DNA of 64,000 nucleotides from Escherichia phage moskry. The stretch lies in sequence record MN850651.1; one strand, given 5' to 3'. Under the pieces are notes generated by a model, which did not search any database, was not told where the DNA came from, and worked only from the letters and a program-made list of their open reading frames with translations. The first letter of the stretch is position 1, and every line of letters begins with the position of its first letter. Made by a program: the position numbers and the translations under genes. This document shows, piece by piece, positions 34,793 through 54,243 of this stretch.

Positions 34793-35137
34793 ATTATTCA
34801 CCAATTAAAGTTTCAACAAAATTCACCAAATCATTCAGACAAGCATCAACCTGTTTTTCATAAAAGTCTTCGTTATCATTTACTGCGTGATAAGCTACAT
34901 CATTCAAATCCGAATCGGCTTCACGTAAGTCATGGATAAGGTCCATCAATTTATTAGCTTGTTCACGGGTCATTTTACCATACTCGTTTCAATAAGATTC
35001 ACTATGCCGTTTACCATGTTATAAGTAAACATCGGATAATTGTATTGTACTACAACATAAGCGATAAGCAAAAGTTTCATTTTGTTCTCCGTTTGTTTTG
35101 ATAGGACTACTATAACATAGTCCTACCAAGATGTAAA

Positions 35138-35368
35138 CTACCGATTGTGTTTTAAATGTTGATAAAGTTCTTCAACTTGTTTAGGGTCCAAAACAATTAG
35201 GTCATTTTCTTGACGAAGATAAATCCATCCCTTATCCCCAGGTCCATTTTTACAAAACATCACCACCATATCATCTTCAGCGCTTTCAGGTAAAAGTTCA
35301 AGTACACCGTCTTCAGATTTTCCAGTATAATCGTAAAGCATAATATCCTCACATAATCTCGTTAACAT
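35138..35368 (-). CDS. Hypothetical protein
   Basis: 76 aa. Confidence 0.45.
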   Translation of the reverse strand: MLTRLCEDIMLYDYTGKSEDGVLELLPESAEDDMVVMFCKNGPGDKGWIYLRQENDLIVLDPKQVEELYQHLKHNR

Positions 35369-35597
35369 ACATTTGCAATTCGGTGTGGGCGTCAGCCATC
35401 TTTTTCATAGCTCTGTTAATGTCGATGTCTCCATCTTCGCAACCATGAGCATTTTCCCAATCAGATACCGCATTAGCGTACTCTTCAATCAAAAACATTA
35501 ACTTAGAAATTTTTTCTTTACGTGACATAACGTTCTCCTCTAGTAAGTAAGGTTTACTATAACACAACCTGAGGAGAAGTAAACTGATAGATGCCAA
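35349..35597 (-). CDS. Hypothetical protein
   Basis: 82 aa. Confidence 0.45.
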   Translation of the reverse strand: MASISLLLLRLCYSKPYLLEENVMSRKEKISKLMFLIEEYANAVSDWENAHGCEDGDIDINRAMKKMADAHTELQMYVNEIM

Positions 35598-35622
35598 AAA
35601 GCCCCAACCATAAGGAAGGGGC
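35596..35622 (-). terminator. Rho-independent terminator after rI
   Basis: Minus strand GCCCCUUCC-UUAU-GGUUGGGGC followed by UUUUUGG. Confidence 0.65.
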
Positions 35623-35629
35623 TAGTAAA

Positions 35630-35932
35630 TTAGATAGATGTAGGCTCTAATTTTATTTTCATGAACTCGGCAAATTGTCTGGCAGTTTTTATGCCTTGTT
35701 CATGACATTCAAATGCATCATCACAGGGGCTATTTTTGTAATGCTTTGCCATATACTTATAGAATTTTTCAGAATTCTCGACATTTTGAATTTCAAACAA
35801 AGTATATACGTTTTTAATCCCTGATTCCATAAAGTTATCAAAATATGGGTCAACATATGCAGTGCCAACAATAGGAGTTGTTGCTGCAAAAAACCCCAGC
35901 ATCGCCATGACAGCTATCGCTCTTAAGGCCAT
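35630..35932 (-). CDS. rI: Lysis inhibition regulator rI (periplasmic, signal anchor)
   Basis: 100 aa; MALRAIAVMAMLGFF...VDPYFDNFMESGIKNVYTLFE...CDDAFECHEQG resembles T4 RI. Confidence 0.85.
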   Translation of the reverse strand: MALRAIAVMAMLGFFAATTPIVGTAYVDPYFDNFMESGIKNVYTLFEIQNVENSEKFYKYMAKHYKNSPCDDAFECHEQGIKTARQFAEFMKIKLEPTSI

Positions 35933-35944
35933 ATAGGCCTCCTG

Positions 35945-36157
35945 TTAATTTTGGCCAGTATTTATTTTTCGCCTTTGGACGGCCTTAACATCTGTGAGGT
36001 ATTTTTCCAGCTTGCGCTTGCGTGTATAATCAGCTTTAGAACCAGTTTGACGGATATCCTCGTTTAAATGAGAAATAGAATGTCCTAATTCTCTTCGGAT
36101 TTCATCCAATTGGGTTACAGTAAGATTACGAAGTTGTCTTTCGTTTAATTGCTGCAT
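35945..36157 (-). CDS. Hypothetical protein
   Basis: 70 aa; TATAAATA late-promoter-like motif upstream. Confidence 0.5.
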
Positions 36158-36184
36158 ATATACCTCTTGGTTAGATATTAGTAT

Positions 36185-36766
36185 TTATAACAACCCTGTC
36201 AAATCATTCCAATGCTTCCGGCATAATGACACATATCTATCGGTATCACCAATTTCAATTTGACTGCCATCTGTAATTGGAAGTCCGTCTTCCGTGACTC
36301 TAGCTACCATTGTGGCCTTTTTACCACAATGACAGACACCTTTAAGTTCAACAAGCTTATCAGCAATAGCCATTAATGCTTGAGAACCTTCAAATAGATT
36401 ACCTTTAAAATCTGTTCGTAGTCCATATGCCATTACCGGCACATTGTATACGTCAACAATACGACTAAGTTGATACACCTTTTCAGTAGTTAAGAACTGA
36501 GCTTCGTCAACAAATACACAGTGAATATCCTTTTGTGCTGCAGCCCATTTATAGAATTCAAAGATATCCATGTCTTTTGTAATTATATTGGCGTCCTGAC
36601 GAATACCAATACGAGAGACTATTTCACCTTTTGAATCGCGAGTATCAATAGCCGGTTTAAGAACTAATACACCCATGCCACGTTCTTTATAGTTATGTGC
36701 GGCAGTAAGTAATGAAGCAGACTTACCAGCGTTCATAGCGGCATATGTAAAAATTAAACTAGCCAT
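36185..36766 (-). CDS. tk: Thymidine kinase
   Basis: 193 aa; MASLIFTYAAMNAGKSASLL...VCHCGKKA matches T4 Tk. Confidence 0.95.
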   Translation of the reverse strand: MASLIFTYAAMNAGKSASLLTAAHNYKERGMGVLVLKPAIDTRDSKGEIVSRIGIRQDANIITKDMDIFEFYKWAAAQKDIHCVFVDEAQFLTTEKVYQLSRIVDVYNVPVMAYGLRTDFKGNLFEGSQALMAIADKLVELKGVCHCGKKATMVARVTEDGLPITDGSQIEIGDTDRYVSLCRKHWNDLTGLL

Positions 36767-36956
36767 AAGAGTCCTTAGTTAAATTTTCTAAATATGTTTC
36801 CAAATCATTTTCAGCTTTATCGATAGATTTTACTAATTCGTAATATGTTTCGGCATCTCCATAATCAGAAGATAATTCAAAAGACAAATCCTTTTCTAAA
36901 CTAATAATTTCACCAACTAAAAATAATATTTCGTTCTTTTGTTCGCGAGTAATCAT
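36759..36956 (-). CDS. Hypothetical protein
   Basis: 65 aa. Confidence 0.45.
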   Translation of the reverse strand: MITREQKNEILFLVGEIISLEKDLSFELSSDYGDAETYYELVKSIDKAENDLETYLENLTKDSYG

Positions 36957-37159
36957 AAGGAATTTATATAATCAATGAGTTCTTGTTCTTTATTATCGAA
37001 TTCTTTAGAAAGTTCTTCGTACTCGTTTGCGCTAAAAGGACCGCATTCATTACAAACTTTTTCCAATTCGCTATTTTTATCCATAACTTCGTGGATAAGA
37101 GAAAAGAGTCTGTCTTTTTGTTCTTTACTTAAACTCATAACCATGTCACCTTTAAGCAA
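36953..37159 (-). CDS. Hypothetical protein
   Basis: 68 aa. Confidence 0.45.
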   Translation of the reverse strand: MLKGDMVMSLSKEQKDRLFSLIHEVMDKNSELEKVCNECGPFSANEYEELSKEFDNKEQELIDYINSL

Positions 37160-37362
37160 TATTCTTCTACATGTTGTTTACGGCCTTTCTTATCAATAAA
37201 GGTATATTCAACGAATGTTCCGATGTAGTCTTTATCTACATCATGTGGACTATTAATTGGACATTTAGTACGACAAATGCGTTCCCATTGACGAATAATT
37301 ACTGCCTTATTCTTTGGATCGTATGGATGTGGATAATGTATATTCATAATAACGGTTCCCAA
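37135..37362 (-). CDS. Hypothetical protein
   Basis: 75 aa. Confidence 0.45.
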   Translation of the reverse strand: MGTVIMNIHYPHPYDPKNKAVIIRQWERICRTKCPINSPHDVDKDYIGTFVEYTFIDKKGRKQHVEEYCLKVTWL

Positions 37363-37841
37363 TCAACAATCACAATTTCTAGTTTAGTAGAATACGTATC
37401 TAAAATCTCTTCGATGACATCCCAGTTTCCACCACCAATACCTGCGCCAATTCTTGGCATATAAATTACAGGCTTTGTTATCTTATTCTTTCCGAATTCA
37501 TTTAATTCTATTATACAATTCATTAAAGCAGAGTACTCAAAATTAGGTCCAGGCTCAAACTGCGTATAAAGATTAAAGCAATAAGCTTTATGGGTCTTAA
37601 AATATTTTTCATAAACCGAATAAGACCCGAGTTTAGACTCGTCTCCATATGCAGTTTGAAGTTTATCGGCTTCCAGAATTTTTGGATAAGCCTTTGCTAA
37701 TTGTCCTGCCACACCGGCGCCCATTGTATGAAAACAATTACACCCATGAGCAATATTATTACCTTTAGAAAACAGGGCGACAATATCGCCCTTGATATAG
37801 TTTTTAATCACTTGCTGCAAGTCCTCTATTATAAGAGTCAA
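37344..37841 (-). CDS. Macro-domain-like protein (putative ADP-ribose binding/processing)
   Basis: 165 aa; GNNIAHGCNCFHTMGAGVAGQLAKAYP resembles the NxxN...GxGVAxx macrodomain motif. Confidence 0.45.
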   Translation of the reverse strand: MTLIIEDLQQVIKNYIKGDIVALFSKGNNIAHGCNCFHTMGAGVAGQLAKAYPKILEADKLQTAYGDESKLGSYSVYEKYFKTHKAYCFNLYTQFEPGPNFEYSALMNCIIELNEFGKNKITKPVIYMPRIGAGIGGGNWDVIEEILDTYSTKLEIVIVDWEPLL

Positions 37842-38151
37842 CTAGACGGTCTACCATAGAATTGCATGCTGCCTTATCTTTAGGTTCCGCCACCGAGCAT
37901 TCTAATATTTGCCATTTTTTATAGTATCTTTTAATTAAGGTAGACGCCTTGAACCTACTAGACGCCCCATCTTTTTCTCCGTCTTTATACGCATATAACA
38001 ATTTTTGTGAAAAATCTACTTTACACTCTTGACTTTTACCACAATAATCAGACGCCGTTCTGTTTGTATACTCCGTTACATCAGTATATGTAGTATTAGC
38101 AAGAGCGTTAAATGAAACCAAGCCAACTATTAAAGCCAACATTTTGGTCAT
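37804..38151 (-). CDS. Secreted protein with signal peptide (vs-position)
   Basis: 115 aa; MTKMLALIVGLVSFNALA. Confidence 0.5.
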   Translation of the reverse strand: MTKMLALIVGLVSFNALANTTYTDVTEYTNRTASDYCGKSQECKVDFSQKLLYAYKDGEKDGASSRFKASTLIKRYYKKWQILECSVAEPKDKAACNSMVDRLVDSYNRGLAASD

Positions 38152-38690
38152 TCTTTTATTTCCAGTAGTTTATTTGATTTAAGGTAATTAGCCTTTTCTA
38201 GGACTTCAGAAGCATATTTACTTCCAGCACTCGTCTTCCATCCCGCATTATATGAGGATATAGCTTTTCTTATATCCCCGTTATGTATATTTAACCAATA
38301 AGAAAATTCTATATAAGCCCATCTGGCTGAATTAGACCGCTTAGATAGCATTTTCTTAATTTGGGCATCAGTCATATTGTAACCAAGCTGGTTAATTCTT
38401 GCCCTCATTGTTGGTAGATAATTTTGGAACATTCCATACGCATGGTGACCTTTCTTATCTTTAAGATTAATACCGGCAGATGATTCTTGCCATAGTATTG
38501 CGGCCATTATGTATCCAAGTCCTTTCTTATGCATATTTTCATGCGTTTTAAATTTTCCATCCTTAGAAAACTGTTCCCCAAACTGATAAGCATAATTCAA
38601 GTTATCGAGTTGGACATTACTAAAAGTATGCTCGGAGCTATGTGCTGATAATGAAAGAGCAAATAGACCAGCGAGTAGTGCTTTTCTCAT
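38148..38690 (-). CDS. Periplasmic lytic-transglycosylase-like protein
   Basis: 180 aa; signal peptide; ILWQESSAG...YGMFQ motif typical of SLT domains. Confidence 0.55.
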   Translation of the reverse strand: MRKALLAGLFALSLSAHSSEHTFSNVQLDNLNYAYQFGEQFSKDGKFKTHENMHKKGLGYIMAAILWQESSAGINLKDKKGHHAYGMFQNYLPTMRARINQLGYNMTDAQIKKMLSKRSNSARWAYIEFSYWLNIHNGDIRKAISSYNAGWKTSAGSKYASEVLEKANYLKSNKLLEIKE

Positions 38691-38698
38691 GTTTACCT

Positions 38699-39157
38699 CT
38701 AGATTTTAATCACTGCTTTAGAAGCTTTTCCTGGTAGTCGTTTACTGTTAATAATAGCCATTCTGCATTGAAGAGTCTTCATTTTGAATGCCGGATTTTC
38801 GCGACAAACTGTAAGTCCCAACCAAAGATTTCCATCAGTTATTTCTAAACGGCCTGGACGGTATTCGACACCTTCGACAAAATCTTCATCAACATCTGGA
38901 CGTGCCGGCATTGATAAAAATTCTGCAACTTCTTTAACATGATTTTTTACTTTACGAAATAATTCAAAAACGTAATTCTCATCTATTTCTCTCTGGATGG
39001 CACGATCTAAGAGATGTTGAGAATACTTGATATGAAAGCCTGGTAGTCCAAGAGACTTTGCAGCATCTTTTATACTGGCATTTATTTTGCGGAACTCCGT
39101 TTCAAAGATTCGACGGAGTTTATTACGGCGGATAAAAACTTCCGAATTGATAGTCAT
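38699..39157 (-). CDS. regB: RegB endoribonuclease
   Basis: 152 aa; MTINSEVFIRRNKLRR...HLLDRAIQREIDENYVFELF...LQCRMAIINSKRLPGKASKAVIK matches T4 RegB. Confidence 0.93.
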   Translation of the reverse strand: MTINSEVFIRRNKLRRIFETEFRKINASIKDAAKSLGLPGFHIKYSQHLLDRAIQREIDENYVFELFRKVKNHVKEVAEFLSMPARPDVDEDFVEGVEYRPGRLEITDGNLWLGLTVCRENPAFKMKTLQCRMAIINSKRLPGKASKAVIKI

Positions 39158-39217
39158 TTTGATTTCTCCTCTAGTTGACAGGTCTATAGTAACACAACTA
39201 GAGGAGATGTAAACTGC

Positions 39218-39427
39218 TTATTCTTGGAATGGTGTGAGTTTTCCAGCTATCGAACAAATTTCTACCATTGCAGGATAAAACTCTTTCACTTGTTCAAGGC
39301 GCTGGACAGCGTACCGCATTTCGCCTTCTTCAAGACAAGCCACCTGGTCATCGAGCAAATATTTATGGTAACCAGTACAGGCTTCACTAATGATACGTTG
39401 GAATTCTTGCAAACTTTCAATTTTCAC
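39218..39427 (-). CDS. Hypothetical protein
   Basis: 69 aa. Confidence 0.45.
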   Translation of the reverse strand: MKIESLQEFQRIISEACTGYHKYLLDDQVACLEEGEMRYAVQRLEQVKEFYPAMVEICSIAGKLTPFQE

Positions 39428-39693
39428 TAGTATTTTTCCTCAGGTCGAAATACTGCACGACACGCCCACATGCTGGCTTCTTTTAGATGTTGCTTAGCGT
39501 ACTTAAGAGCCTGCACTGCATCCATATCTTCTTTGGTTTGTTGCTCTGTTTCGTTTTCTTTCAAGATATATGCTTCTTCAATCAGAGCATCAAACAACAA
39601 TCCAAGACGGACTTCAGCATCTTTAATAGCGTTCACTTTACCGATTTTATCATCAGTATGCGGCTTGTAGCCTTTGATGTCTTCAATCGACAT
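39427..39693 (-). CDS. Hypothetical protein
   Basis: ORF track 39427..39861 truncated to internal Met to limit overlap with the next gene. Confidence 0.4.
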   Translation of the reverse strand: MSIEDIKGYKPHTDDKIGKVNAIKDAEVRLGLLFDALIEEAYILKENETEQQTKEDMDAVQALKYAKQHLKEASMWACRAVFRPEEKY

Positions 39694-39907
39694 AAGGAAT
39701 TTCCTCATCAGTGGCAAGGTCATATTCGACCAATTGGATAGGCTCATTAATACCATATCCACGTACAGTGATATCAGTTGTCGGATAGTTTCCAGTAATA
39801 TCACCCATTCTAAATGATTCAATGAATGATTGCTCGCCTGAGCAACTAAACCAGGCGGCAAAACATTTTAAAACATCTTCAGACCCTTCTATAATCAATT
39901 TAGCCAT
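39683..39907 (-). CDS. Hypothetical protein
   Basis: 74 aa. Confidence 0.45.
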   Translation of the reverse strand: MAKLIIEGSEDVLKCFAAWFSCSGEQSFIESFRMGDITGNYPTTDITVRGYGINEPIQLVEYDLATDEEIPYVD

Positions 39908-40269
39908 TATAGACTCTCAGTAAAGGTACGAGCGATAACGTCGCGCTGCTGTTCTGGAGTCAGAGAGTTAAAGCGAACTGCATAACCGGATACACGAATG
40001 GTCAGCTGCGGATATTTTTCCGGATGCTTAACTGCATCTTCCAGAGTTTCACGACGCAGAACATTAACGTTCAGGTGTTGACCACCTTCAATTTTAACTT
40101 TAGGTTGATGTTCAATTTCAATTTCACGGGCATTCAAACCGTAGAAAATTTCCGGGTCTACAATAGCGTCTTCTTTAAAAGTCTTAGAGACAATAATCCG
40201 GGCTTGAGTACCGTCTTCAAAATAAATAGTGCCTTTGTGTGTGCCTTCAAGAATTTGATATGCTTTCAT
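39907..40269 (-). CDS. Autonomous glycyl radical cofactor (GrcA/YfiD-like)
   Basis: 120 aa; C-terminal [59 protein letters not shown] matches recalled E. coli GrcA. Confidence 0.85.
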
Positions 40270-40275
40270 ATAACC

Positions 40276-40584
40276 TCAATTAGAAAATAAATTTATCCAA
40301 GTTTTTTCTTTAATCAAAAATGGGTCGGAATTAAACGCCATTAAACTTTGAGTGATTAATCCCTTAAATGGCCCATCAATAAATTCCATTTTGAAATGTG
40401 GAATACTAGTCATCAACCGTGCATTAGGAGCAGTACAAAGAACCTGCTGCCCTGCGAACGGACCTTTAGTCAAACGATATCGTTTAGGTTTAAAATGGTA
40501 AATCTCGTAATTTTCTACAAGGGCCCTTTTATTGCATACTGGGCTGTTATAACAATACTCAAAAACTTCAATAGTGGTCATCAT
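40276..40584 (-). CDS. Hypothetical protein
   Basis: ORF track 40276..40632; internal Met start avoids overlap. Confidence 0.45.
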   Translation of the reverse strand: MMTTIEVFEYCYNSPVCNKRALVENYEIYHFKPKRYRLTKGPFAGQQVLCTAPNARLMTSIPHFKMEFIDGPFKGLITQSLMAFNSDPFLIKEKTWINLFSN

Positions 40585-41120
40585 TGCATTCCAATCACAA
40601 AAAATTGAGGACGAGCAATACCGCCGTTGCAATATTTACTTTTGCAACAGTGTTGGACTGTTTTAATATGGATGTCGTAAATCTTATCCATATCAGGAGC
40701 TTTAATAGGCTCGTCAATTATATACAGAATACGAGAAAGCGTTAATCCACGGAATTTATGTCCTTCATTACCAATAAAACTACGGACAGAATCAGTAAAT
40801 AAACGGAATCGAATATCATCGCTAGAATAACGAGAAAATTCTTTTTCAATGTTGCCAGCAGAAATTTTAGCATAAGCTGAAGTATTAGAAAGAACAATAA
40901 CTGTTCCACCATCATACAGCCAATTAGCAGCAAAATTAGTTACTGCGGTCGATTTACCTGATTGTCTGCCGCCGTCTAAACGAAGTGTACAGTACTGCTT
41001 GAGTACGTCTTCGAATGGTGGGATATAACCGTTCTTACAAATTTCTTCTACTCTAGCATCAGAATGGTGTGTAAAAGCATTCATCAGGGATAGATAAGGA
41101 CCAGTTAAAAATGTTCTCAT
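40581..41120 (-). CDS. P-loop NTPase-like protein
   Basis: 179 aa; Walker A DGGRQSGKSTAV. Confidence 0.5.
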   Translation of the reverse strand: MRTFLTGPYLSLMNAFTHHSDARVEEICKNGYIPPFEDVLKQYCTLRLDGGRQSGKSTAVTNFAANWLYDGGTVIVLSNTSAYAKISAGNIEKEFSRYSSDDIRFRLFTDSVRSFIGNEGHKFRGLTLSRILYIIDEPIKAPDMDKIYDIHIKTVQHCCKSKYCNGGIARPQFFVIGMQ

Positions 41121-41288
41121 TTAGTTTCTCTTAAGGTTGGGGCCATTCCATGGCGCATGAATTGTCCATTTCTGTATTTACCCATTACCGCACTTGGGCA
41201 CGACCTTATTACAGGTTGGAAAAGGTACATCACTCAGAGGACTCGACGTTCATGAGGAGAGGTTGCGTTTCCCTTTATTAGGCAAGAA

Positions 41289-41643: not shown

Positions 41644-41958
41644 TTATTCTTTAGGGAAGTTTTTAGAGTATGCGTCATAAAGTTTATTACCGATGCGACG
41701 GAAGACTTTAGCTGCAAAACGGTTTTCAGGGTTTTTAATCATGATTTGCATCATGTAAGTTCCTGCATCCGAAAGAGCTTCTTCATAGTACCCATTAATT
41801 TCTTTAAGAGTCCTACGTTTACCACCAGGACCATCAACAGTAATTTTCCATTTACCTGTAGAAGTGCGGCTCGGTGGCTCAACTTGTTCAATCCAAATAT
41901 AACCACCTTCAACGCGTTGGTTGGCGGATTCTGCAATAAATTCTTTATACGTTTTCAT
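41644..41958 (-). CDS. Internal protein with capsid-targeting sequence
   Basis: 104 aa; MKTYKEFIAE; early promoter GTTTACG-N17-TATAAT upstream. Confidence 0.75.
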   Translation of the reverse strand: MKTYKEFIAESANQRVEGGYIWIEQVEPPSRTSTGKWKITVDGPGGKRRTLKEINGYYEEALSDAGTYMMQIMIKNPENRFAAKVFRRIGNKLYDAYSKNFPKE

Positions 41959-42021
41959 TTTTGTTTCCTTGTTTGTTTTGATAGAGTAATTATACCATAT
42001 TAATACTTAAGCGTAAACAAT

Positions 42022-42288: not shown

Positions 42289-42702
42289 TTAGTAAATTGA
42301 TTTACCATAGTATTTGTACCAAGTCGGACGTTGAGCAATTTTTTCATCTAAGCGTGCTTGACTTATCGCAATGGACGCTTCGGACGGGACATAATTATTA
42401 CGAAATTCGGCAGGGATGTCGGAAATATCCTGGACTGTCGTGTCCTTGATTTTGAAACCACGTTTCAAGCATTCAGCGATTAGCTCGATTTGTCGTAAAC
42501 GTAAAAATTCGAGTTTGTCGTAAAAGAATGTTACGTGACCTGTGCCTAAGATAAATGTTGGAGAGATTTTAAAATCCTTTACACGTTTACCGTTTTGAAC
42601 ATGTTTACGGACTGCACCAAATACGCGTGGTAATTCACGATACTCAGCCATAAGATGTTGGTCGGCCAGTTCAGAAACAAGTGTTAAATTGATACGGGTC
42701 AT
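42289..42702 (-). CDS. denV: Endonuclease V, pyrimidine-dimer DNA glycosylase
   Basis: [35 protein letters not shown]... matches T4 DenV; start at internal ATG. Confidence 0.95.
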
Positions 42703-42760
42703 AATTTCCTCCAAGTAGTTGATGAATGTATAGTATCAAAACCCTTGGAGGAAGTAAACA

Positions 42761-45421: not shown

Positions 45422-45727
45422 TTATTTTCCTCGACATTCTTTAATGAAATTTTCTAGATTGGTAGATTCAATAGCTTTTTTACGAGCTTCTGCGTGTTCT
45501 TCTTCGGACAATTTACGTTTATAATTGACCCAGACATTATGGTCGAAACCAGACGTGGCATATAATAACAAAGCTCCAACGAATAGCAAAAATGGTGATA
45601 AAAATATACAACCAGGAACACCATCCATACTGTAAGCCTTTTGTAATACTGCAACAGAAAGAGTTGCGTAAAAAGGTGATGCAAGTATTGTTAAAAGACC
45701 AATTCGGTTGGTTTCGCCTAATTTCAT
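45422..45727 (-). CDS. Membrane protein
   Basis: 101 aa, two hydrophobic helices. Confidence 0.5.
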   Translation of the reverse strand: MKLGETNRIGLLTILASPFYATLSVAVLQKAYSMDGVPGCIFLSPFLLFVGALLLYATSGFDHNVWVNYKRKLSEEEHAEARKKAIESTNLENFIKECRGK

Positions 45728-45785
45728 AATATTCTCCTCATGTTTTAATAGGACTACTATAACATAGCCCTATCAGTTTGTACAC

Positions 45786-46004
45786 TTATTTTGACATTTC
45801 TTCGATGTCACGACGATACCCATCACGAACTTCACGAAGAGCTTCAAGGCCACACATAGGCTCGATACCAGTAATGTGAACTTGATTAATCTGATACTCT
45901 ACATCTTCTAACTGAGCGAAAACATAACGACGTTCTGCTGCACAACCAGGTTTAGCTTTACCGAAACGTTTATTCAAAGTAGTCATTTTTATATCTCCAT
46001 TCAC
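45786..46004 (-). CDS. Hypothetical protein
   Basis: 72 aa. Confidence 0.45.
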   Translation of the reverse strand: MNGDIKMTTLNKRFGKAKPGCAAERRYVFAQLEDVEYQINQVHITGIEPMCGLEALREVRDGYRRDIEEMSK

Positions 46005-46066
46005 TCATTTGTTTTGATAGGTCTATAGTATCAACAACTACAGACCTTGTAAACTGTTTTGTGAAA

Positions 46067-47051: not shown

Positions 47052-47303
47052 TTAAATTTCACGACATGCGATATTATATTCATCCCAGAGGTCATCATGT
47101 GAAGCCTCTACCAATGGAACGATTGTACCGTTTATGTCTTCATTATAAGGGCAAATTGTACAGTGCGCATCTTCGAATCGGATGCCTTTGTGTTCAGATT
47201 TTTTATAACGCATATCGAATATCTTTGCAAACTTTTCACGAGTAATGGTTTTACCAACTACTTCGGTTCCGATACTTTCGTAATAAATCATTGTGGACTC
47301 CAT
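47052..47303 (-). CDS. Hypothetical protein
   Basis: 83 aa. Confidence 0.45.
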   Translation of the reverse strand: MESTMIYYESIGTEVVGKTITREKFAKIFDMRYKKSEHKGIRFEDAHCTICPYNEDINGTIVPLVEASHDDLWDEYNIACREI

Positions 47304-47353
47304 TTAATTTGATAGGACTACTATAACATAGCCCTATCTTGTTGTAAACTGTT

Positions 47354-47551: not shown

Positions 47552-47560
47552 ATGATTTCC

Positions 47561-47833
47561 TTAACAAGTGTGAGAAGATGCAACCCAACCGCCATCTTCA
47601 AGGCTCAAGTTGTAGTCGTATTGGTAAACGTCAGCCCATTCAGCATAGCCGTTTTTTGTACAACGTTCAAGATCGGCTTTAAGATGTCCGGGTGAATGAT
47701 AGGTTCCACCCATACCATAAGCTGGATACAAGTCGAATGTTGTGTTTTGTTTATCAGCAATTTCTTTGGCAGCCTCAATAGCTGCATAGATTTTTGCTAC
47801 GGCTTCAGCCAGTTCGGTTTGTTCTTTAGACAT
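47561..47833 (-). CDS. Small protein, C-terminal WVSSSxxC family member
   Basis: 90 aa ending GGWVASSHTC. Confidence 0.5.
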   Translation of the reverse strand: MSKEQTELAEAVAKIYAAIEAAKEIADKQNTTFDLYPAYGMGGTYHSPGHLKADLERCTKNGYAEWADVYQYDYNLSLEDGGWVASSHTC

Positions 47834-47842
47834 AATGATTCC

Positions 47843-48148
47843 TTAGCACAACGCAGAAGACGAAACCCAAGCACCTTCAGTAATAACGTAACCATTACCT
47901 TCACGCTTAACATCGCCACCATTATTTTCAATTTCATCTTTCATCCACTGGGATACGATTTCACCCTTAGGATAATAAGTACGACCGCTACCATAATCAC
48001 CTACAGAAAATGATACGGCATATTGGTCTGCGATCTTTGTTGCTTCTTCTTCGATACGTTCAGCTTGATTCAGAAGTTTATAAATTGCATCTGAAGCGGA
48101 TTTGGCATCATTAAACTCTGGTACTTTAATTTCAATAATCTTACTCAT
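47843..48148 (-). CDS. Small protein, C-terminal WVSSSxxC family member
   Basis: 101 aa ending GAWVSSSALC. Confidence 0.5.
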   Translation of the reverse strand: MSKIIEIKVPEFNDAKSASDAIYKLLNQAERIEEEATKIADQYAVSFSVGDYGSGRTYYPKGEIVSQWMKDEIENNGGDVKREGNGYVITEGAWVSSSALC

Positions 48149-48246
48149 TTTCTACATTCCTTAATAAAGTTTTCGATTGTTTCATTTTCACGTCTAGCTA
48201 GGAGTTCATTATAACTAATCATTTGAGAAGCGTAAACAGCATAAAT

Positions 48247-48669
48247 TCAGTTCAGGCTTTTGCATCTTATCTCCTTAACGAATTCCATGGCTTCGTCATA
48301 TTCATATTTTTTAACAGCCTCGTCATATTGAGCTCTTGCTTTTGCACATTGAATTTTCCATTCGCGTACTCGAGCTCTATAATGTCGTCCTTGGTACCAA
48401 TATCCCACCCAATTAATAGGCATTAATAAAAATGGCACAATAAACGACCCGGCTATAATAAGTAAAAACACTGCATCAGACGATATAACTTCACTAGAAT
48501 CTAAAACAGCTCCTATAATCATAAAGATTAAAAATGCTAAAGCTAAAATAGGGCCAAATAGTACTTCGTTTGGGATTAATTTACGTTTGTATTCGTATGC
48601 CCAGGGCTTAATTGGCATGTACAGGGTTGGCTTTGACATATTCTCTACATTCCATAATAAATTGCTCAA
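48247..48669 (-). CDS. Membrane protein
   Basis: 140 aa; two TM helices then basic C-terminus. Confidence 0.5.
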   Translation of the reverse strand: MSNLLWNVENMSKPTLYMPIKPWAYEYKRKLIPNEVLFGPILALAFLIFMIIGAVLDSSEVISSDAVFLLIIAGSFIVPFLLMPINWVGYWYQGRHYRARVREWKIQCAKARAQYDEAVKKYEYDEAMEFVKEIRCKSLN

Positions 48670-49210
48670 GGATTAAATTGTTAGTGAAATTAGGACTAAC
48701 AACCATAGTTTCATAAAGCGCATCAATAGCACTTAAAGCATCAACTCTCTTAAGCAAAGGCTTGCCTTCATACATAGTTTCAGAATCGACGATTAAAGTG
48801 AAGTAGTATTTTTTATTATTGACCAGAACTTCTGTATCAATATAAAACATGTTAGACCTTAAAAGCTTGTCTCTAAAACCATAATAATCTTTAGAGCATT
48901 CGCTGATATATTCCCATTCAGTGTTTAAACAACAAACAGACCATGTAGGAGCAACGAACTCAGTGAATCTAATATCATGGTCTGCAACTAGTTTAGCAAT
49001 AGCTCCGATATCATGAATCATAATACCTGGGGCTAATAAAGATTTTCTGCTATGGCTAGCCGTTTTCTCAGTAGTCTCATAAGAAGACGACCAGTACCAT
49101 TTACGTCCAGTTGCAACATATCGTAATGAATCAACTAAAGACGTAGGTGGATTTACCTTATCTCGGAACTCTTCGAACATTGAGTCAATATCATTATTTT
49201 GGTTTCGCAT
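48608..49210 (-). CDS. Hypothetical protein
   Basis: ORF track 48608..49231; probable start at internal Met. Confidence 0.5.
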   Translation of the reverse strand: MRNQNNDIDSMFEEFRDKVNPPTSLVDSLRYVATGRKWYWSSSYETTEKTASHSRKSLLAPGIMIHDIGAIAKLVADHDIRFTEFVAPTWSVCCLNTEWEYISECSKDYYGFRDKLLRSNMFYIDTEVLVNNKKYYFTLIVDSETMYEGKPLLKRVDALSAIDALYETMVVSPNFTNNLILEQFIMECREYVKANPVHAN

Positions 49211-49259
49211 GTTAACTCCTTTATTATCCAAAAGGAGGACCGGAGTCCTCCGTATTATT

Positions 49260-49868
49260 TTATTTCAAAGAGTTAATATATTCTTGTACATCTGCAGAAG
49301 TGGTTTCGACACCAGCTGGAGTGCCATTGAACGTTTCAACACGAGTCAGAGTGTCTTCGATATCAACCTTAGTCAGTGCAGCGATTTCAATTACATCATC
49401 AGCCGTAGAGATACCAAGGGCATTAGCTGCTCGAGTTTCACGAATGTATTCGAGTTTGATTGCCAGATTCTGACGAGCATCGTCAAGTTCAACCACCTTA
49501 CGAGCAATTTCAATTCGCATAGCGGCATACCCGTCAGCTTTTGTATTAAGTTGTTCGGCAGTTCGACGATACAGAAGACCAAGCTTAGCATGCATGGTAA
49601 CATCTTGTCCTTCGGCCAGGAGCTTACGAATTTCACGTTCCTTAGAAGCGGCTTGCTTGTTCTTTTCATTAACAAGTTCGCGAATACGTTTTTCTTCATT
49701 AATAGATTTAACAGAAGCCGTTTTTAGTTCTTTGATTTGGGTAATCAACTTATCTGCAGCTGCGTTATACTGTTCTTCGACAGTCAGATTTTTAGCCATA
49801 GCAGTACCCAGTTTAGTGCGGATGAATTCAACAAGTTTCTTCAGTGTGTTCATATTATTACCTTTCAA
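49260..49868 (-). CDS. Coiled-coil protein
   Basis: 202 aa, heptad-rich. Confidence 0.5.
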
Positions 49869-49923
49869 TTGGTGGTTTATTATCCAACGAGAGCATTATA
49901 CTCTGCTCTCAAGAGTTTGTAAA

Positions 49924-50151
49924 TTATTTTTTAATCAAATTGACATAAAACTTGGCGTCTTCGGGGTGCATGCCTTCGCAGTATTCTTCAACCATGAACT
50001 TCTTAACAGCTTCATAAGGACCACTCAGATTAAGCTCGGTTGTCCAGAACTTGGAATCTTGTACTGAATCGATACGAACTTCAGGGTGACGGTTGCGAAT
50101 AACTTCTTCTGTGTATTCATAATCAACGACATCAATACTAACTTTAGCCAT
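49924..50151 (-). CDS. Hypothetical protein
   Basis: 75 aa. Confidence 0.45.
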   Translation of the reverse strand: MAKVSIDVVDYEYTEEVIRNRHPEVRIDSVQDSKFWTTELNLSGPYEAVKKFMVEEYCEGMHPEDAKFYVNLIKK

Positions 50152-50430
50152 TTTGTTTTCCTCTTGATTTGATAGGACTACTATAACATAAACTTACTTA
50201 GATGTAAATTATTTCAACGTCACCTTTAGCTGCTTTATAACCTTCAGCCCAAGATACAACAGAGTTTTTATCTGAGGATTCAAATTCAGGCATTGGACTT
50301 TCACCAATATTCACACAGTATGTTTCTTCATTTTCATCGAACCAAATAATTAAAGTAGTCATTTTGTTTACTCCTCTGTAGTTGTTAAGTCTATAGTATC
50401 ACCATCCTTGGTGATTGTACATCATTATTT

Positions 50431-50736
50431 TTAATTTTTCCAACTTAACAACTTGTAGTGTCCTTCATTCATACGTGGTTTATCCCAAGAAATACTAATA
50501 TATGATTCACTGTCAATAGAAATCGCCGGGTTTTTCTCTACCGTAAGACCTTCACTTTCCAGCCATTCAATAGTATTTGCGCATAAATCAGAAGAACACC
50601 TCATCGGGAACCGGCAAGATTTTTCACCTTTAGCTGCAGTGTTATACATCTTTTCTAAAATACGCTTTTGCACGTTTTTAAAAATAGTTTCAGCAGATTC
50701 TTCAGATTTTTTATTCAGTTCAGTGTAAAGACTCAT
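50431..50736 (-). CDS. Hypothetical protein
   Basis: 101 aa. Confidence 0.45.
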   Translation of the reverse strand: MSLYTELNKKSEESAETIFKNVQKRILEKMYNTAAKGEKSCRFPMRCSSDLCANTIEWLESEGLTVEKNPAISIDSESYISISWDKPRMNEGHYKLLSWKN

Positions 50737-50825
50737 AATATTCTCCTCATGTTTTGATGGGTCTATAGTAACACATCTAGGGAAGAAGTAAACAACTTTT
50801 TCAGTAAGTTATAGACCCCCTAATG

Positions 50826-50841
50826 GGGACCGAAGTCCCCA
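50826..50841 (-). other. UUCG-tetraloop hairpin after internal-protein gene
   Basis: Plus ggggac-cgaa-gtcccc. Confidence 0.5.
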
Positions 50842-50845
50842 TTCT

Positions 50846-51478
50846 TTACTTACGAGTTTTTGCATACTGAGCAGCGTCAGCAGCCAAACGACCTGCCTGA
50901 CGAAGTTTTTCTTTAATCTCATCATGAAGTGGTTGAGTATACTTCAAACCTTCGATAGTCAAATAAAGACGATAAAGGTCTGGGGTATCAAGGTTGTTGA
51001 TATGTTGGCCATTACGAAGACTATTGAATTCACGAACGAGTGAAGATGTATCGGATTCAATATCACGAACAAGCGAAGATAGTTGTTTATATTTTTTTTC
51101 CAGGCTAGAAGTATCAAACTTAAGAGCAGGAGCTTTAGGAGTTGCTTTTACTTCAGGCTTAGGCTTAGGTTCAGGTTTTGCTATTGCTTTAGGGGTCGCA
51201 GGTTTAGGAATGGTAGGAGCAGGTTTTACTTTAGGCGAACCCGATTTAGCAGAAACACCACCACTAACAATATCTTTGAATGCTTTAGAAGCTCTGTAAT
51301 ATTCTTTTTGGCTGGAAGTGTCGATACCGTACATGGCTTGAACGTTTTTGAAAAACTCTGTACTAGTTTTTGTACCAGAAATAGCATCGTAAGCAGCTTG
51401 CCATTTCTCTTTTGTCATACGTACGCCGGCTTCGGTGATTACTTCCGTTTCGGCTAAAAATTCATTAAAAGTATACAT
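50846..51478 (-). CDS. Internal-protein-like head protein with Pro/Lys-rich linker
   Basis: 210 aa; N-terminus MYTFNEFLAE (targeting-sequence-like); PKVKPAPTIPKPATPKAIAKPEPKPKPEVKATPKAP; TATAAATA late promoter motif at 51512-51519. Confidence 0.6.
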   Translation of the reverse strand: MYTFNEFLAETEVITEAGVRMTKEKWQAAYDAISGTKTSTEFFKNVQAMYGIDTSSQKEYYRASKAFKDIVSGGVSAKSGSPKVKPAPTIPKPATPKAIAKPEPKPKPEVKATPKAPALKFDTSSLEKKYKQLSSLVRDIESDTSSLVREFNSLRNGQHINNLDTPDLYRLYLTIEGLKYTQPLHDEIKEKLRQAGRLAADAAQYAKTRK

Positions 51479-51522
51479 TGATGGTCCTTAGAAAGTGGGT
51501 TTATTGTTTACTATATTTATAC

Positions 51523-51550
51523 AAAAAAGCCCCAACCTTTCGGAAGGGGC
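51523..51550 (-). terminator. Rho-independent terminator
   Basis: Minus strand GCCCCUUCCGAAAGGUUGGGGC followed by UUUUUUG. Confidence 0.65.
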
Positions 51551-51853
51551 TATATACCTTGTCGGGGTTCCACCTGCTAAGGCAAGTGTTTGTACGAAAC
51601 GCCGGGATTCGAACCCGGTTATTAAGTAGTTGACGCTACTCAATATTTTTAAAAGGCCATATCTCGACCATATCCGAACGTTCCGTCAAAAACGCTACTC
51701 GGCTTACGGCAAAGATATTTCCTCGAATCGATAATTCGGTGCGCCGTTTCTGCTGTGATGTAAGGGGATATTAACAAATCGTAAAGATTTATTAAGACCA
51801 GTCCTTACTCAGGGAACATCAGTCCGACGACTTACCGGTAGCGACCCGGCTTC

Positions 51854-52198
51854 TTATTTTGACATATCATCAATTTGCTCTCGACGCCGACGCCATAGAT
51901 TAATCGCTTCATTAACACATTCGGCGTTTGGTATATGACGGCAATAATATAATGATTCGCGTTTCTGGAACCGATGTTGCAATGGGATTTCGTTTAAAAG
52001 GTCTTTACGGTCAAAGTATTCAAAACTAGTTAACCCAGAACGGTTTTTAAGGAACTTCCAATGACCGAATTCATTTTGAACATAGATGTAATCTGCATGT
52101 TGGTATAACAAATTAATCAATCGGTCTGAAATAACTGTATCATGTTCGTTAAAATAAAACGTTAAATCATGAACTACTAAGTAAACATTACCTTTCAT
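51854..52198 (-). CDS. Hypothetical protein adjacent to tRNA genes
   Basis: MKGNVYLVVHDLTFYFNEHD...; ORF track start at 52246 would overlap tRNA-Arg, so internal Met preferred. Confidence 0.45.
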   Translation of the reverse strand: MKGNVYLVVHDLTFYFNEHDTVISDRLINLLYQHADYIYVQNEFGHWKFLKNRSGLTSFEYFDRKDLLNEIPLQHRFQKRESLYYCRHIPNAECVNEAINLWRRRREQIDDMSK

Positions 52199-52219
52199 AT
52201 TTTCCTCACTTGAAGTTGG

Positions 52220-52293
<74 letters not shown>

Positions 52294-52299
52294 AATATA

Positions 52300-52373
52300 T
52301 GACCCAGACCAGATTCGAACTGGTAACCTTTCCCTTATGAGGGGACTGCTGCTAACCATTGAGCTACAGGGCC
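52300..52373 (-). tRNA. tRNA-like gene, anticodon CAU (Met or lysidine-Ile type), irregular D-arm
   Basis: T-arm ACCAG-TTCGAAT-CTGGT, anticodon loop CTCATAA, acceptor GGCCCTG/CTGGGTC with one U-U mismatch; D-stem does not pair canonically. Confidence 0.5.
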
Positions 52374-52452
52374 TAAATAACTTTCTATTATGAAAGGCAC
52401 TTTAGAGCACCTTTGGTAATAGAGGGTATGAATTAATAATAACACATAATTC

Positions 52453-52968
52453 TTAAAGCAAATCAATCATTTTAACAGTCGGCAAAACGATTTCTTCTTC
52501 AATATAAGCAAATTCAACACATTCAACTACACGCAAGAAATCATAATCATAATATTCAGAAGCATTGCCAAGAATATCAGTGAGACCTTCTGATACCAAA
52601 TATCCATTCTCACGGAACAGGTCAAATACACGTGATTCGTCTTCTTCAGATTTATTACCGAGGTCGACTTCAATATCAAAGACCTTTTTAATGAATTCTG
52701 GATAAAGATGGTCTGAGAACAGTCCTTCAACCAAGTATTCATAGATTAAAAGCGAGCAATCACTGAATAGTGTATTACCACAGTAACGTTCAGCTTTAGT
52801 ACTAGAATGACGACTCTTAAATTTCTTCAAGAGATATTTAAACTGTTGGAGCTCATGCTCTTCTACACCAAATAATGTTTTGGTTTTATAGTTGTCACCG
52901 TCATTTTCCGAAGTAGTGACATCAATTACGTAACCCTTAGGAATTGTACTGCCTAAACAAATATTCAT
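52453..52968 (-). CDS. Hypothetical acidic protein
   Basis: 171 aa. Confidence 0.5.
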   Translation of the reverse strand: MNICLGSTIPKGYVIDVTTSENDGDNYKTKTLFGVEEHELQQFKYLLKKFKSRHSSTKAERYCGNTLFSDCSLLIYEYLVEGLFSDHLYPEFIKKVFDIEVDLGNKSEEDESRVFDLFRENGYLVSEGLTDILGNASEYYDYDFLRVVECVEFAYIEEEIVLPTVKMIDLL

Positions 52969-52972
52969 TTAC

Positions 52973-53263
52973 TCACCGTACCATATTAATGTAATTATAT
53001 TCAATGCAACGTAATTTCAAAGGATTCTTGAAAATATCATATTCAAGAGGGCCTTTTTCTGTTTCAATAAAGAAATCAAAGTTCACACTATTAAATTTGC
53101 GGTCTTCCCAAAGTAATTTAACCTGTGAAGATGAACGGTCGACGTAAACCTTTTCAACTTCAAAGTGGGTCAAAATACCATAGTAATCGACTAGTGCTTT
53201 AGCTGCAGCTCGGTCGCTTTCATATCCATTCTCAACGGATTTTACCTTAGCATAAAGAATCAT
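52973..53263 (-). CDS. Hypothetical protein
   Basis: 96 aa. Confidence 0.45.
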   Translation of the reverse strand: MILYAKVKSVENGYESDRAAAKALVDYYGILTHFEVEKVYVDRSSSQVKLLWEDRKFNSVNFDFFIETEKGPLEYDIFKNPLKLRCIEYNYINMVR

Positions 53264-53622
53264 GAATGTTCCACCATTTCAAAGGTATGAGCATCAACAA
53301 TATGATACCAGTCAAAATTTTCTTCTGCGTTTTTATAAATTTCGCGAAGAGCCTCAACAGTTTTTCCTGTAGCAACAAGATCATCAATACCGCCAAGAGG
53401 ATAACAGTCGTAACCAGCAAACAGAAGGAAATTAATAGTTTCTGTAGGTTCTGGATGCAGAATACCGTTATCATCTACCACTTCAAAGAAAGTGTAAGAA
53501 GGAGTACAAGTTTTAATCCAAGCCCAGGCTTGAGCTGCTGAATCAAATGGCCTGCGTATCAAACGACAATCAGGGTCTTTAGAAGGATTTGCTTCAAAAT
53601 CTGCATATACATGATATTTCAT
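53260..53622 (-). CDS. Hypothetical protein
   Basis: 120 aa. Confidence 0.5.
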   Translation of the reverse strand: MKYHVYADFEANPSKDPDCRLIRRPFDSAAQAWAWIKTCTPSYTFFEVVDDNGILHPEPTETINFLLFAGYDCYPLGGIDDLVATGKTVEALREIYKNAEENFDWYHIVDAHTFEMVEHS

Positions 53623-53829
53623 TTACTCACCTTTTGCAATTTTATCCATAACGATAGCGATTAAGCCGATTAGAAATGCTACTACCAATGAGATAGAATT
53701 TTCTGTTGTTGTCAGTAGTCCACAAATGAATCCTACAAACATCGAAAAACTAAAAGCCATTGAAGCAATTACTACAGCAACATTACGAATCAGTTCAGCG
53801 CGTTTCATTTTATTTCTCCATTTACTCAT
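53623..53829 (-). CDS. Small membrane protein
   Basis: 68 aa, two hydrophobic helices. Confidence 0.45.
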   Translation of the reverse strand: MSKWRNKMKRAELIRNVAVVIASMAFSFSMFVGFICGLLTTTENSISLVVAFLIGLIAIVMDKIAKGE

Positions 53830-53878
53830 TTGTTTTGATAGGACTACTATAACATAGTCCTATCAGCATGTAAACTAC

Positions 53879-54166
53879 TTACAGAAGAGTTTTTGCAATA
53901 ATTTTAAGCTGAGCTACAGAAATATGCTTAGCTTTAAACAGTGCAGTCTCTTCAGCCGGAGAGATAACAATAGTAGCGCCATCTTTCTTAGCAGACCATC
54001 CATCCCCTAAGTAAACAGTACCTTTTACTTCTTCGCCGTCAACCAGGCCAATCATTGGTTTACCCTCACGTCCTTTATTTGCTTTAATAACTTCGGAAGT
54101 AAGGGTTGCTTCGGTTAGAGTAGAAACATTAGCATCAGGTGATATAAATTCTTTATAGGTTTTCAT
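53879..54166 (-). CDS. Internal protein with capsid-targeting-like N-terminus
   Basis: 95 aa; MKTYKEFISP... Confidence 0.6.
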   Translation of the reverse strand: MKTYKEFISPDANVSTLTEATLTSEVIKANKGREGKPMIGLVDGEEVKGTVYLGDGWSAKKDGATIVISPAEETALFKAKHISVAQLKIIAKTLL

Positions 54167-54243
54167 TTTATTTCCTTGAGGTCGTTTATTTGATAGGATG
54201 ATAGTAACACACCATCATCCTTATGTAAACTGTTTTGTGAAAA

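Follow-up and report, generated by a model that had tools for sequence, protein, structure and literature searches.

Early promoter cassettes carrying internal complementarity were characterized in a 64,000-nucleotide stretch of DNA from Escherichia phage moskry (sequence record MN850651.1), which as a whole is referred to below as the window. The favored reading, to which a probability of roughly 0.6 was given on the strength of sequence comparison, is that these are cassettes of the promoter-early stem-loop (PeSL) type whose dyads, each a pair of complementary arms, would fold in read-through RNA, and which occasionally recombine with one another. Folding of the dyad is most likely restricted to transcripts that enter the cassette from upstream. 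The evidence comes from complementarity in excess of that expected by chance, from compensatory changes between the two arms, from a mismatch bias on the sense strand, and from the position of the arms relative to the promoter and the Shine-Dalgarno sequence.

The window was about 96% identical to phages of the JS09 group of Mosigvirus (SSE1, JS09, JK42, and others), which belongs to the family Straboviridae, subfamily Tevenvirinae. The part between 30 and 55 kb corresponded to the T4 order nrdC.x - mobD.x - rI - tk - vs - regB - denV - e - nudE - e.x - tRNA - ipI - 57B/57A, and its genes were all minus-strand. It counts among the parts of T4-like genomes that are variable and crowded with short genes. 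In such hyperplastic regions, PeSLs have been described in RB49/phi1, T4/PST, and KVP40/nt-1 as an AT-rich tract followed by an early promoter, a stem-loop, and a Shine-Dalgarno sequence and start codon on the 3' side, the stem-loop lying mostly between -35 and -10 or overlapping -10 (PMC2839356; PMC4122927). The early promoters of T4 and RB69 are described as having the motifs GTTTAC and TGn, with A-rich sequence from -40 to -44 and C residues from -3 to -1 (PMC1524935; PMC2988021), and for RB69 a set of 57 such promoters was predicted in 2006 (PMC1524935).

Early promoter cassettes on the minus strand

Twenty-two hand-picked sites of the window served to train a position weight matrix, which returned 24 minus-strand sites between 19.9 and 54.2 kb (the 22 training sites and two more) and no site on the plus strand of the window. 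As the training sites match by construction, the independent information lies in the empty plus strand. When the same matrix was applied to the first 32 related loci, 157 hits were in gene sense and 2 were antisense. A generic sigma-70 scan was uninformative (69 sites against 60 expected), the strands being separated by the T4-specific matrix only. The cassettes were confined to 19.9-54.2 kb, that is, to the nrdC-tk-regB-denV-e-ipI region with its short hypothetical genes, and the matrix scan found none at 1-19 kb or at 55-64 kb of the window. Throughout, cassettes are named by their upper coordinate, on the -35 side, so that the cassette at 53875 spans 53810..53875.

The cassettes were intergenic, 65-85 bp in size, and followed a constant order: the upstream gene's stop codon (in most cases 2-16 nt ahead of the -35), an A-rich tract, GTTTAC(A), a spacer of 16-17 bp, TGn-TAYWRT, a CCTATC start region, an A-rich leader, GGAG, and ATG, with the Shine-Dalgarno sequence and ATG about 27-38 nt past the -10 at every site. 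The A-rich tract resembled an UP element (upstream consensus AAAAAATA), and the consensus after the -10, AGACCTATCA, agreed with the C-rich -3 to -1 positions of the RB69 type (PMC1524935). The features of T4 early promoters were found together, namely a GTTTAC(A) -35, a 16-17-bp spacer, TGn, and a -10 of the form TAnnnT with A-11 and T-7, and the sites preceded, in gene orientation, orthologues of regB, denV, ipI-like, and nrdC.x genes as well as novel open reading frames (ORFs). By homology with T4, from which their activity is predicted, the cassettes are regarded as immediate-early promoters of a T4-like phage used by host sigma-70. A typical early promoter has been reported for T4 regB (PMC3014915), and the orthologous cassette of the window lies at 39214.

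A sequence-only reading made before this analysis had described minus-strand promoters of the form GTTTACA-N17-TATA(A/G)T with a dyad in the spacer or -10 region. The promoters and their strand were borne out, but the range given to the family, which reaches down to 19.9 kb, and the literal pattern were both too narrow: GTTTACA-N15-19-TATAAT had 2 matches and TTTACA-N16-18-TATART had 7 minus-strand matches, and the consensus is better written as GTTTAC(A)-N16/17-TGn-TAYWRT. The 21-nt core reported in five copies, GATAGGACTACTATAACATAG, was recovered at 35100, 45747, 47311, 50171, and 53837 with at most 1 mismatch (0 expected), no more than 5 nt from the coordinates first given, and all five copies read, on the minus strand, GTTTACA - 10 nt - GATAGGRCTATGT - TATAGT - AGTCCTATCAAAAC ... 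GGAG ... ATG. The seven related copies proposed in the same reading (30911, 32389, 39175, 46014, 50381, 50755, and 54185) proved to be real promoter-like sites of the same build, and the pair held to be near-identical at a distance of 30 kb (cassettes 19936 and 49924) shared 56 of 62 positions, with unrelated genes downstream of the two. The proposed likeness to PeSLs was upheld by an architecture that fits the published definition (PMC2839356; PMC4122927). A dyad in the spacer or -10 region was found at many sites, but not every site has a convincing one.

Complementarity in excess of chance

Twenty-five candidate sites were compared with random 71-mers of the window. When G:U pairs were counted, a stem of 10 or more pairs was present at 10 of the 25 sites against 7.6% of the random 71-mers, an enrichment of about 5-fold in which the five core copies, being paralogues, are not independent; about 8 distinct arm sequences occurred among the cassettes of the window. 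At least 9 Watson-Crick pairs were found at 5 of the 25 sites, compared with 1.3% of the random 71-mers, and about 15 (approximately 60%) had stems of at least 7 pairs. RNA folds had a z of -2.97 or lower relative to dinucleotide shuffles in 8 of 12 segments, 7 of which were below -3.4. An arm-swap control was then applied to 152 unique predicted promoters of the window and its relatives: complementarity of at least 8 was found in 41% of matching pairs and in 4.4% of swapped pairs, showing that the dyads are no by-product of the promoter consensus.

Two positional classes of dyad

The scan for the position of the stems covered T4 (L002) together with five close relatives and with 38 T4-like phage loci from IMG/VR, in which protein identity went as low as about 40%, the seven most distant loci (L026-L032, 40-44%) contributing at most one matrix hit each. 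A stem score of at least 8 was obtained for 108 of the 233 unique predicted early promoters (46%), those of T4 included. The 5' arm nearly always started 14-18 nt before the -10, within the spacer, while the end of the 3' arm was bimodally distributed, at either +11 to +19 or +25 to +31 counted from the first base of the -10. In the first arrangement (class 1), the extended -10 is clasped by the hairpin, whose end lies near +3 of the inferred start. In the second (class 2), to which about 38 of the 108 strong stems across phages belonged, the 3' arm ends in the GGAG region and includes the GGAG Shine-Dalgarno sequence.

Within the window, class 1 comprised the cassettes at 54230, 53875, 47349, 45785, 35138, 46054, 30949, 20236, 49924, and 19936, and class 2 comprised 39214 (regB), 42759 (denV), and 35584, with 21363 as a weak case. 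In the three clear class 2 cassettes the 3' arm lies over the Shine-Dalgarno sequence and the 5' arm lies upstream of the inferred start. A short hairpin confined to the spacer was found at 50422, 29311, and 28291, and no convincing dyad at 50793, 50209, 42018, 27311, 25874, or 20661. The same arrangement was seen in T4 at ipI, denV, regB, and mobD.2.

Covariation of the arms and strand of pairing

Arm sequences differed completely among cassettes. For the regB orthologues, the 3' arms fell out of register in a whole-cassette MAFFT alignment, and the -35 and GGAG were taken instead as anchors for the arms, independently of complementarity. Across genera, both sides had changed in 7 of 13 pairs, and the covariation score was 0.316 compared with 0.161 for column shuffles (0 of 500 reached the observed value) and at most 0.124 for slid partners. 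Three complementary versions were found among the denV orthologues (CCAAG/CTTGG, CTGTAG/CTACAG, and CGTTTG/CAAACG). The paralogous cassettes at 19936 and 49924 were distinguished by a compensatory change from A:T to C:G (GAGAGA/TCTCTC and GAGAGC/GCTCTC, respectively), and two distant loci (L022 and L025) carried GATGGGACTAT/ATAGTCCCATC, which is the core of the window with a compensatory change from A:T to G:C. These comparisons indicate that selection acts on the pairing rather than on the sequence.

The internal mismatches of strong stems, read on the sense strand, were G:T in 23 cases and A:C in 5 (unique arm pairs), and grouping by hand into family-level events left roughly 17 G:T against 5 A:C. 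A transition in a Watson-Crick pair yields either mismatch equally, and nearly equal numbers would also be predicted from base composition. The sense strand also folded better than the antisense strand (66 against 42 of 108; Wilcoxon 8e-5). Together, the excess of G:T over A:C and the better folding of the sense strand favor pairing in sense-strand RNA or, with lower probability, in the non-template DNA strand, and they speak against both a symmetric cruciform and a protein operator.

Proposed function in read-through RNA

The complementary stretches, present in about 60% of the cassettes, are those left unconstrained by the promoter, namely the spacer and the region directly after the -10. 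With a start about 7 nt past the -10, RNA from the cassette's own promoter would lack the 5' arm and could not fold, whereas RNA reading through from an upstream promoter would contain both arms and could do so. Read-through is normal in T4 early regions, where early transcripts, once extended, supply part of the middle RNA (PMC2988021). In class 2, the Shine-Dalgarno sequence would be hidden in the read-through RNA, and translation of the gene would depend chiefly on RNA from its own early promoter; where this proximal promoter is immediate-early, translation would be confined to the first minutes. RNA secondary structure shields GGAG from RegB, and regB mRNA is cut in its own Shine-Dalgarno sequence (PMC3014915), so the folded and open forms of the RNA would be expected to differ in decay too. 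In class 1, the hairpin would end just ahead of the A-rich leader and act on read-through RNA; a role as attenuator, insulator, or 3'-end stabilizer is put forward with low confidence. Finally, the cassettes are dispersed repeats of 45-60 bp in the same orientation, between two of which homologous recombination would occasionally delete, insert, or swap a small ORF, in the manner of PeSLs.

Cassettes and synteny breakpoints

Breakpoints were compared between the window and SSE1, JS09, JQD51, 348Ecol098PP, HY126, and IMG/VR locus L003, taking events of at least 25 bp in the 30-55 kb region. Of 33 distinct indel or replacement breakpoints, 8 were intragenic, 15 coincided with plain gene junctions, and 10 with junctions that carry a cassette; breakpoints thus prefer gene boundaries in general. 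Cassettes occupied 16 of 60 junctions and took 10 of the 25 junction breakpoints, which makes them, nominally, about 1.3-fold richer. The sequence-only reading had taken the cassettes for points of modular gene shuffling, and individual events are indeed bounded by them; the idea that they are the main shuffling points has to be tempered, plain gene junctions carrying nearly as many breakpoints.

The ORF at 45786-46004 and one cassette were absent from loci L003 and L035, where the junction was a chimeric cassette composed of the upstream flank of 46054 and the body of 45785. In the same two loci the ipI-like gene (53879-54166), between cassettes 54230 and 53875, was replaced by 616 bp, with homology stopping about 20 nt into the gene and resuming exactly at the G of GTTTACA of 53875. 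The 54-amino-acid ORF between 50422 and 50209 was replaced or deleted in relatives, and a breakpoint fell inside cassette 50209. Cassette 50793 was the left breakpoint of a replacement (756 versus 1733 bp), the -35 of the regB cassette (39214) was the left breakpoint of a swap of vs.3 variants, and a further breakpoint lay 33 nt from cassette 42018. The window also carried a deletion of about 240-250 bp in the e.3/e.4 region relative to SSE1, JS09, JQD51, and HY126, with its breakpoint at 48237-48249; this was the exact 5' edge of a GTTTACG box, of which the TATAAT had been kept and the A-rich upstream tract of SSE1 lost. Judged by these alignments, a few cassettes mark the gain, loss, or swap of small genes.

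At the ipI-like gene, the upstream homology to L003 and L035 ran through the cassette and into the coding sequence for about 20 nt (54144-54166, ATGAAAACCTATAAAGAATTTAT). This conserved start presumably corresponds to the N-terminal capsid-targeting sequence of T-even internal proteins, and the exchanged unit would accordingly be the mature part of the protein. Separately, a near-identical cassette, GTTTACATCTCCTGTAGGYATGATACTATARACCTATCAACTACAGGAGA (1-3 differences), was found before denV in T4 and before regB in L004, L009, L041, and L042, and it preceded both denV and regB in L004 and L009. Its presence at different genes suggests that whole cassettes have been copied or converted between genes.

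Alternative explanations

Several points weigh against the reading of the dyads as elements of read-through RNA. The start site about 7 nt past the -10 is an assumption, and the promoter matrix derives from sites of the window itself. A convincing dyad is missing from about 40% of the cassettes, so the hairpin is inessential to the cassette as such, and the class 1 hairpin does not touch the Shine-Dalgarno sequence. The 233 promoters and the G:T and A:C counts are phylogenetically related, which makes the P-values optimistic. G:T is also the least destabilizing mismatch in a DNA hairpin, and a hairpin of the non-template DNA strand may therefore still form. With respect to recombination, cassette junctions are barely richer in breakpoints than plain gene junctions.

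Under the classical interpretation of PeSLs, the cassette is a composite of terminator and promoter, its stem-loop terminating or attenuating transcription of the upstream gene and perhaps serving as a target for recombination. In RB49/phi1, the stem-loop PeSL211/210 lowered the expression of a reporter to about the same extent as rrnB T1 did, and mini-circles arose by recombination between cassettes (PMC2839356); the cassette anatomy is equal here, and several indels are cassette-bounded. The embedded stems of the window, however, are followed by no T-run and have A-rich tails (CCTATCAAAAC), and they are AT-rich, whereas the stems tested in RB49 were polyG/polyC; without a T-tail, they cannot be taken to share the terminator activity of one GC-rich stem of RB49. 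The class 2 arms end on the Shine-Dalgarno sequence, which would be needless for a terminator, and the prolongation of early RNAs into T4 middle RNA (PMC2988021) also speaks against termination at these sites. An intrinsic terminator in the strict sense, a GC-rich stem with a U-tract, was rejected, no embedded dyad being among the 17 terminator-like sites found. On balance, the composite terminator is considered unlikely.

It was also considered that the dyad acts in DNA, as a cruciform or a hairpin of the non-template strand that exposes the -10 in single-stranded form or is a target for a recombinase or resolvase. The -10 hexamer does lie in the loop of class 1 stems, a stem-targeting protein was speculated upon by the authors who described PeSLs (PMC2839356), and the crossover at ORF 45786-46004 falls in the -35/spacer part of the cassette. 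Against this, the G:T excess and the better folding of the sense strand do not fit a symmetric cruciform, the class 2 loops of 17-30 nt would make poor cruciforms, pairing with a Shine-Dalgarno sequence is meaningless in DNA, and breakpoints show no clear enrichment at cassette junctions over other gene junctions. Action at the DNA level is therefore held to be quite improbable.

Still further down in probability is a palindromic operator, in which a dimeric phage protein, for example a factor shutting off early promoters, would bind the dyad over the -10. The five-copy core does form a 28-bp near-palindrome over the -10, and early-promoter shut-off is not understood (PMC2988021; PMC3014915). 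The identity of the five copies, however, is explained by recent duplication or conversion, and the arms are wholly different among cassettes (GATAGGACTA, AGGTCTATA, AGGATGAT, CTCCTCTAGTTG, TTCCTCCAAG), vary in register and loop length, change in a compensatory manner, and tolerate G:T on one strand only. With arms that vary and covary and no conserved half-site at fixed spacing, the operator was rejected. That the complementarity merely follows from the consensus of the promoter (ACTAT...ATAGT on either side of a TATA-like box), or from chance in AT-rich DNA, has next to no likelihood: random 71-mers of this genome do often give 7-pair stems with G:U (mean 7.2), and the inner stem is partly the -10 itself, but swapped arms keep the consensus and lose the complementarity, stems of at least 10 pairs are enriched, and the changes at regB are compensatory, so this explanation was rejected on the arm-swap control.

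Individual cassettes and neighboring features

The cassettes and their dyads are listed in Table 1.

Table 1. Early promoter cassettes of the window, with paired arms and predicted RNA folds (z relative to dinucleotide shuffles)
Position	Strand	Feature	Paired arms	Fold and remarks
54165..54230	-	Cassette upstream of ipI-like gene (53879-54166), class 1	Core AGGATGAT/ATCATCCT, within arms 54210-54221 and 54195-54206	-16.8 kcal/mol, z -3.9; -10 TACTAT (54201-54206); matrix site
53810..53875	-	Core-family cassette	TGATAGGACTAT/GTAGTCCTATCA (53854-53865, 53836-53847)	z -4.0; dyad clasps -10 TATAGT (53846-53851)
50728..50793	-	Cassette without strong embedded dyad		Matrix site
50357..50422	-	Cassette with short spacer hairpin	ATCACCA-AGGA-TGGTGAT (50398-50415)	Weak fold, z -0.9
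50144..50209	-	Core-family cassette	Degenerate 5' arm, no dyad	Core copy at 50171
49859..49924	-	Cassette upstream of e.6-like gene	TGAGAGCA/TGCTCTCG around -10 TATAAT	z -2.3; paralogue of cassette 19936
47284..47349	-	Core-family cassette	GATAGGGCTAT/GTAGTCCTATC, with G:U wobbles	z -3.7
45989..46054	-	Cassette, upstream end of ORF 45786-46004 module	AGGTCTGTAGT/ACTATAGACCT, one G:U	z -3.0
45720..45785	-	Core-family cassette, downstream end of ORF 45786-46004 module	TGATAGGGCTAT/GTAGTCCTATTA	-35 GTGTACA
42694..42759	-	denV cassette, class 2	TTCCTCCAAG (spacer, 42744-42753) with CTTGGAGGAA (Shine-Dalgarno, 42706-42715)	-19.1 kcal/mol, z -3.6
41953..42018	-	Cassette, GTTTACG and TATAAT	No convincing dyad	Matrix site
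39149..39214	-	regB cassette, class 2	TCTCCTCTAGTTG (39195-39207) with CAACTAGAGGAGA (39165-39177, including Shine-Dalgarno)	-20.5 kcal/mol, z -3.5
35519..35584	-	Cassette, class 2	TTCTCCTC (35571-35578) with GAGGAGAA (35533-35540, Shine-Dalgarno)	z -1.6; also an inner AGGTT/AACCT helix
35073..35138	-	Core-family cassette	TTGGTAGGACTAT/GTAGTCCTATCAA	z -4.4
32360..32425	-	Cassette, GTGTACA and TATTAT	Weak embedded dyad	Matrix site
30884..30949	-	Cassette	AGGTCTATAGT/ATTATAGACCT around -10 TATTAT	z -1.6
28226..29311	-	Two cassettes, -35 at 29311 and 28291	Common spacer hairpin AACCA-AGGA-TGGTT	-10 TATAAT
27246..27311	-	Weaker promoter-like site, GTTTACG and TGT-TATAAT	No convincing dyad	Matrix site
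21298..21363	-	Cassette, GTTTACA and TAAGAT	Weak 5-bp TCCTC/GAGGA pairing of spacer with Shine-Dalgarno
20171..20236	-	Cassette	ACGATAGGAAGA/TCTTCCTATCGT	z -4.2; outer GATAGG/CCTATC as in core family, inner 4 bp changed compensatorily
19871..19936	-	Cassette, GTATACA and TATAAT	TGAGAGA/TCTCTCG

C(UUCG)G hairpins are the classic extra-stable intergenic hairpins of T4, and two GC-rich hairpins with a UUCG tetraloop were found on the minus strand, at 50822-50843 (GGGGAC-TTCG-GTCCCC) and at about 32456-32472 (GGGGACC-TTCG-GGTCCC). They sit 30-50 nt upstream of cassettes 50793 and 32425, respectively, and since neither of these has a strong embedded dyad, both look like an arrangement in which the stem lies upstream of the promoter. 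A leader, CAAAACAAATGAGTRAATGGAGAWATAAAATG, was common to several cassettes (minus strand, about 53806-53835, 45984-46012, 32377-32392, and 20180-20190) and holds an in-frame ATG 7 codons 5' of the start codon that follows the Shine-Dalgarno sequence, so that ORF finders call the longer form. Directly upstream of the A-rich tract of cassette 19936 there is a TGCTTA resembling a MotA box (minus strand, about 19943-19948), which reads TGATTA in the paralogue 49924; its distance of about 31 nt from the TATAAT of 19936 does not suit a middle promoter with this -10.

Two tRNA genes were found on the minus strand at 52220-52293 and 52300-52373 (Rfam RF00005, 71 and 54 bits), where relatives annotate tRNA-Arg and tRNA-Met. 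Between the two tRNAs, HY126 has about 880 bp including a tRNA-Asn, compared with 79 bp in the window. The Rfam scan of the whole window returned these two tRNAs only, and no known RNA family at the cassettes.

Comparison with known systems

By sequence architecture, the cassettes appear to be known in kind, as PeSLs and T4 early promoters, here in a JS09-like Mosigvirus. In common with PeSLs they have the stop codon, the AT-rich tract, the early promoter with an N17 spacer, the stem-loop between -35 and -10 or over the -10, the Shine-Dalgarno sequence, and the ATG; they are clustered in the same orientation in a hyperplastic region full of small ORFs; and some ORF indels or swaps have a cassette at either end, one of them with a junction that is chimeric. 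They differ in that PeSLs were described for RB49/phi1, T4/PST, and KVP40/nt-1 and not for the JS09/RB69 group, and in that the stems here are AT-rich without a T-tail, while the terminator activity in RB49 came from one GC-rich stem. The figure legend for PST/T4 places the stems just upstream of the promoter, whereas in the window and in the scan of T4 they are mostly embedded. The two positional classes, the arm covariation, and the sense-strand G:U bias are further differences found here. No prior description of the two classes or of the G:U bias was found in a literature search that did not cover the older T4 literature, and no priority is claimed; the same search, with the same limit, found no prior account of arm pairing between spacer and Shine-Dalgarno sequence at regB or denV.

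The likeness to the early promoters of T4 and RB69 extends to GTTTAC, TGn with TAnnnT, the A-rich UP tract, and the C-rich -3 to -1 positions. The excerpts of PMC1524935 and PMC2988021 treat the spacer as unconserved, and complementarity of the spacer with the start region or the Shine-Dalgarno sequence is not mentioned in those excerpts. The swap of the ipI-like gene among relatives, within early-promoter elements that are conserved, resembles the polymorphic internal protein (IP) loci of T-even phages (Repoila et al. 1994, as cited in PMC2839356 and PMC4122927); this concerns only one locus of the cassette family seen here. For annotation, the cassettes mark operon starts, and a few of them mark module boundaries of the hyperplastic region. 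In comparative terms, the spacer co-evolves with the start or Shine-Dalgarno region across genera, T4 included.

A functional parallel is offered by T4 e, soc, 49, and I-TevI, in which a late promoter lies in the 5' arm and the 3' arm covers the Shine-Dalgarno sequence, so that only read-through RNA folds and translation takes place on RNA of the proximal promoter (PMC3014915). Class 2 (regB, denV, and 35584) has the same arm geometry. The promoters of that group, however, are late (gp55) promoters, TATAAATA, and delay translation, whereas the proximal promoter here is immediate-early, and neither regB nor denV is among the cases of this type given in the review (PMC3014915). As the proximal promoter is early and not late, class 2 would work like the e/soc/49/I-TevI family without being a member of the described set.

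A more tentative proposal, to which somewhat less than even odds are given, is that the embedded dyads form a widespread "promoter-of-origin" switch in T4-like phages, by which the RNA of a gene is read according to where it began. Were this so, transcripts begun at the gene's own promoter would be open, both to translation and to RegB, and read-through RNA would be folded, with the Shine-Dalgarno sequence hidden in class 2 and a clasp hairpin in front of the leader in class 1; regB and denV would have a post-transcriptional route confining their expression to the first minutes of infection; and many early genes would be regulated by which promoter made the message, which bears on how early expression is shut off. 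The principle known from e, soc, 49, and I-TevI would then extend from a handful of late promoters to a large share of early ones.

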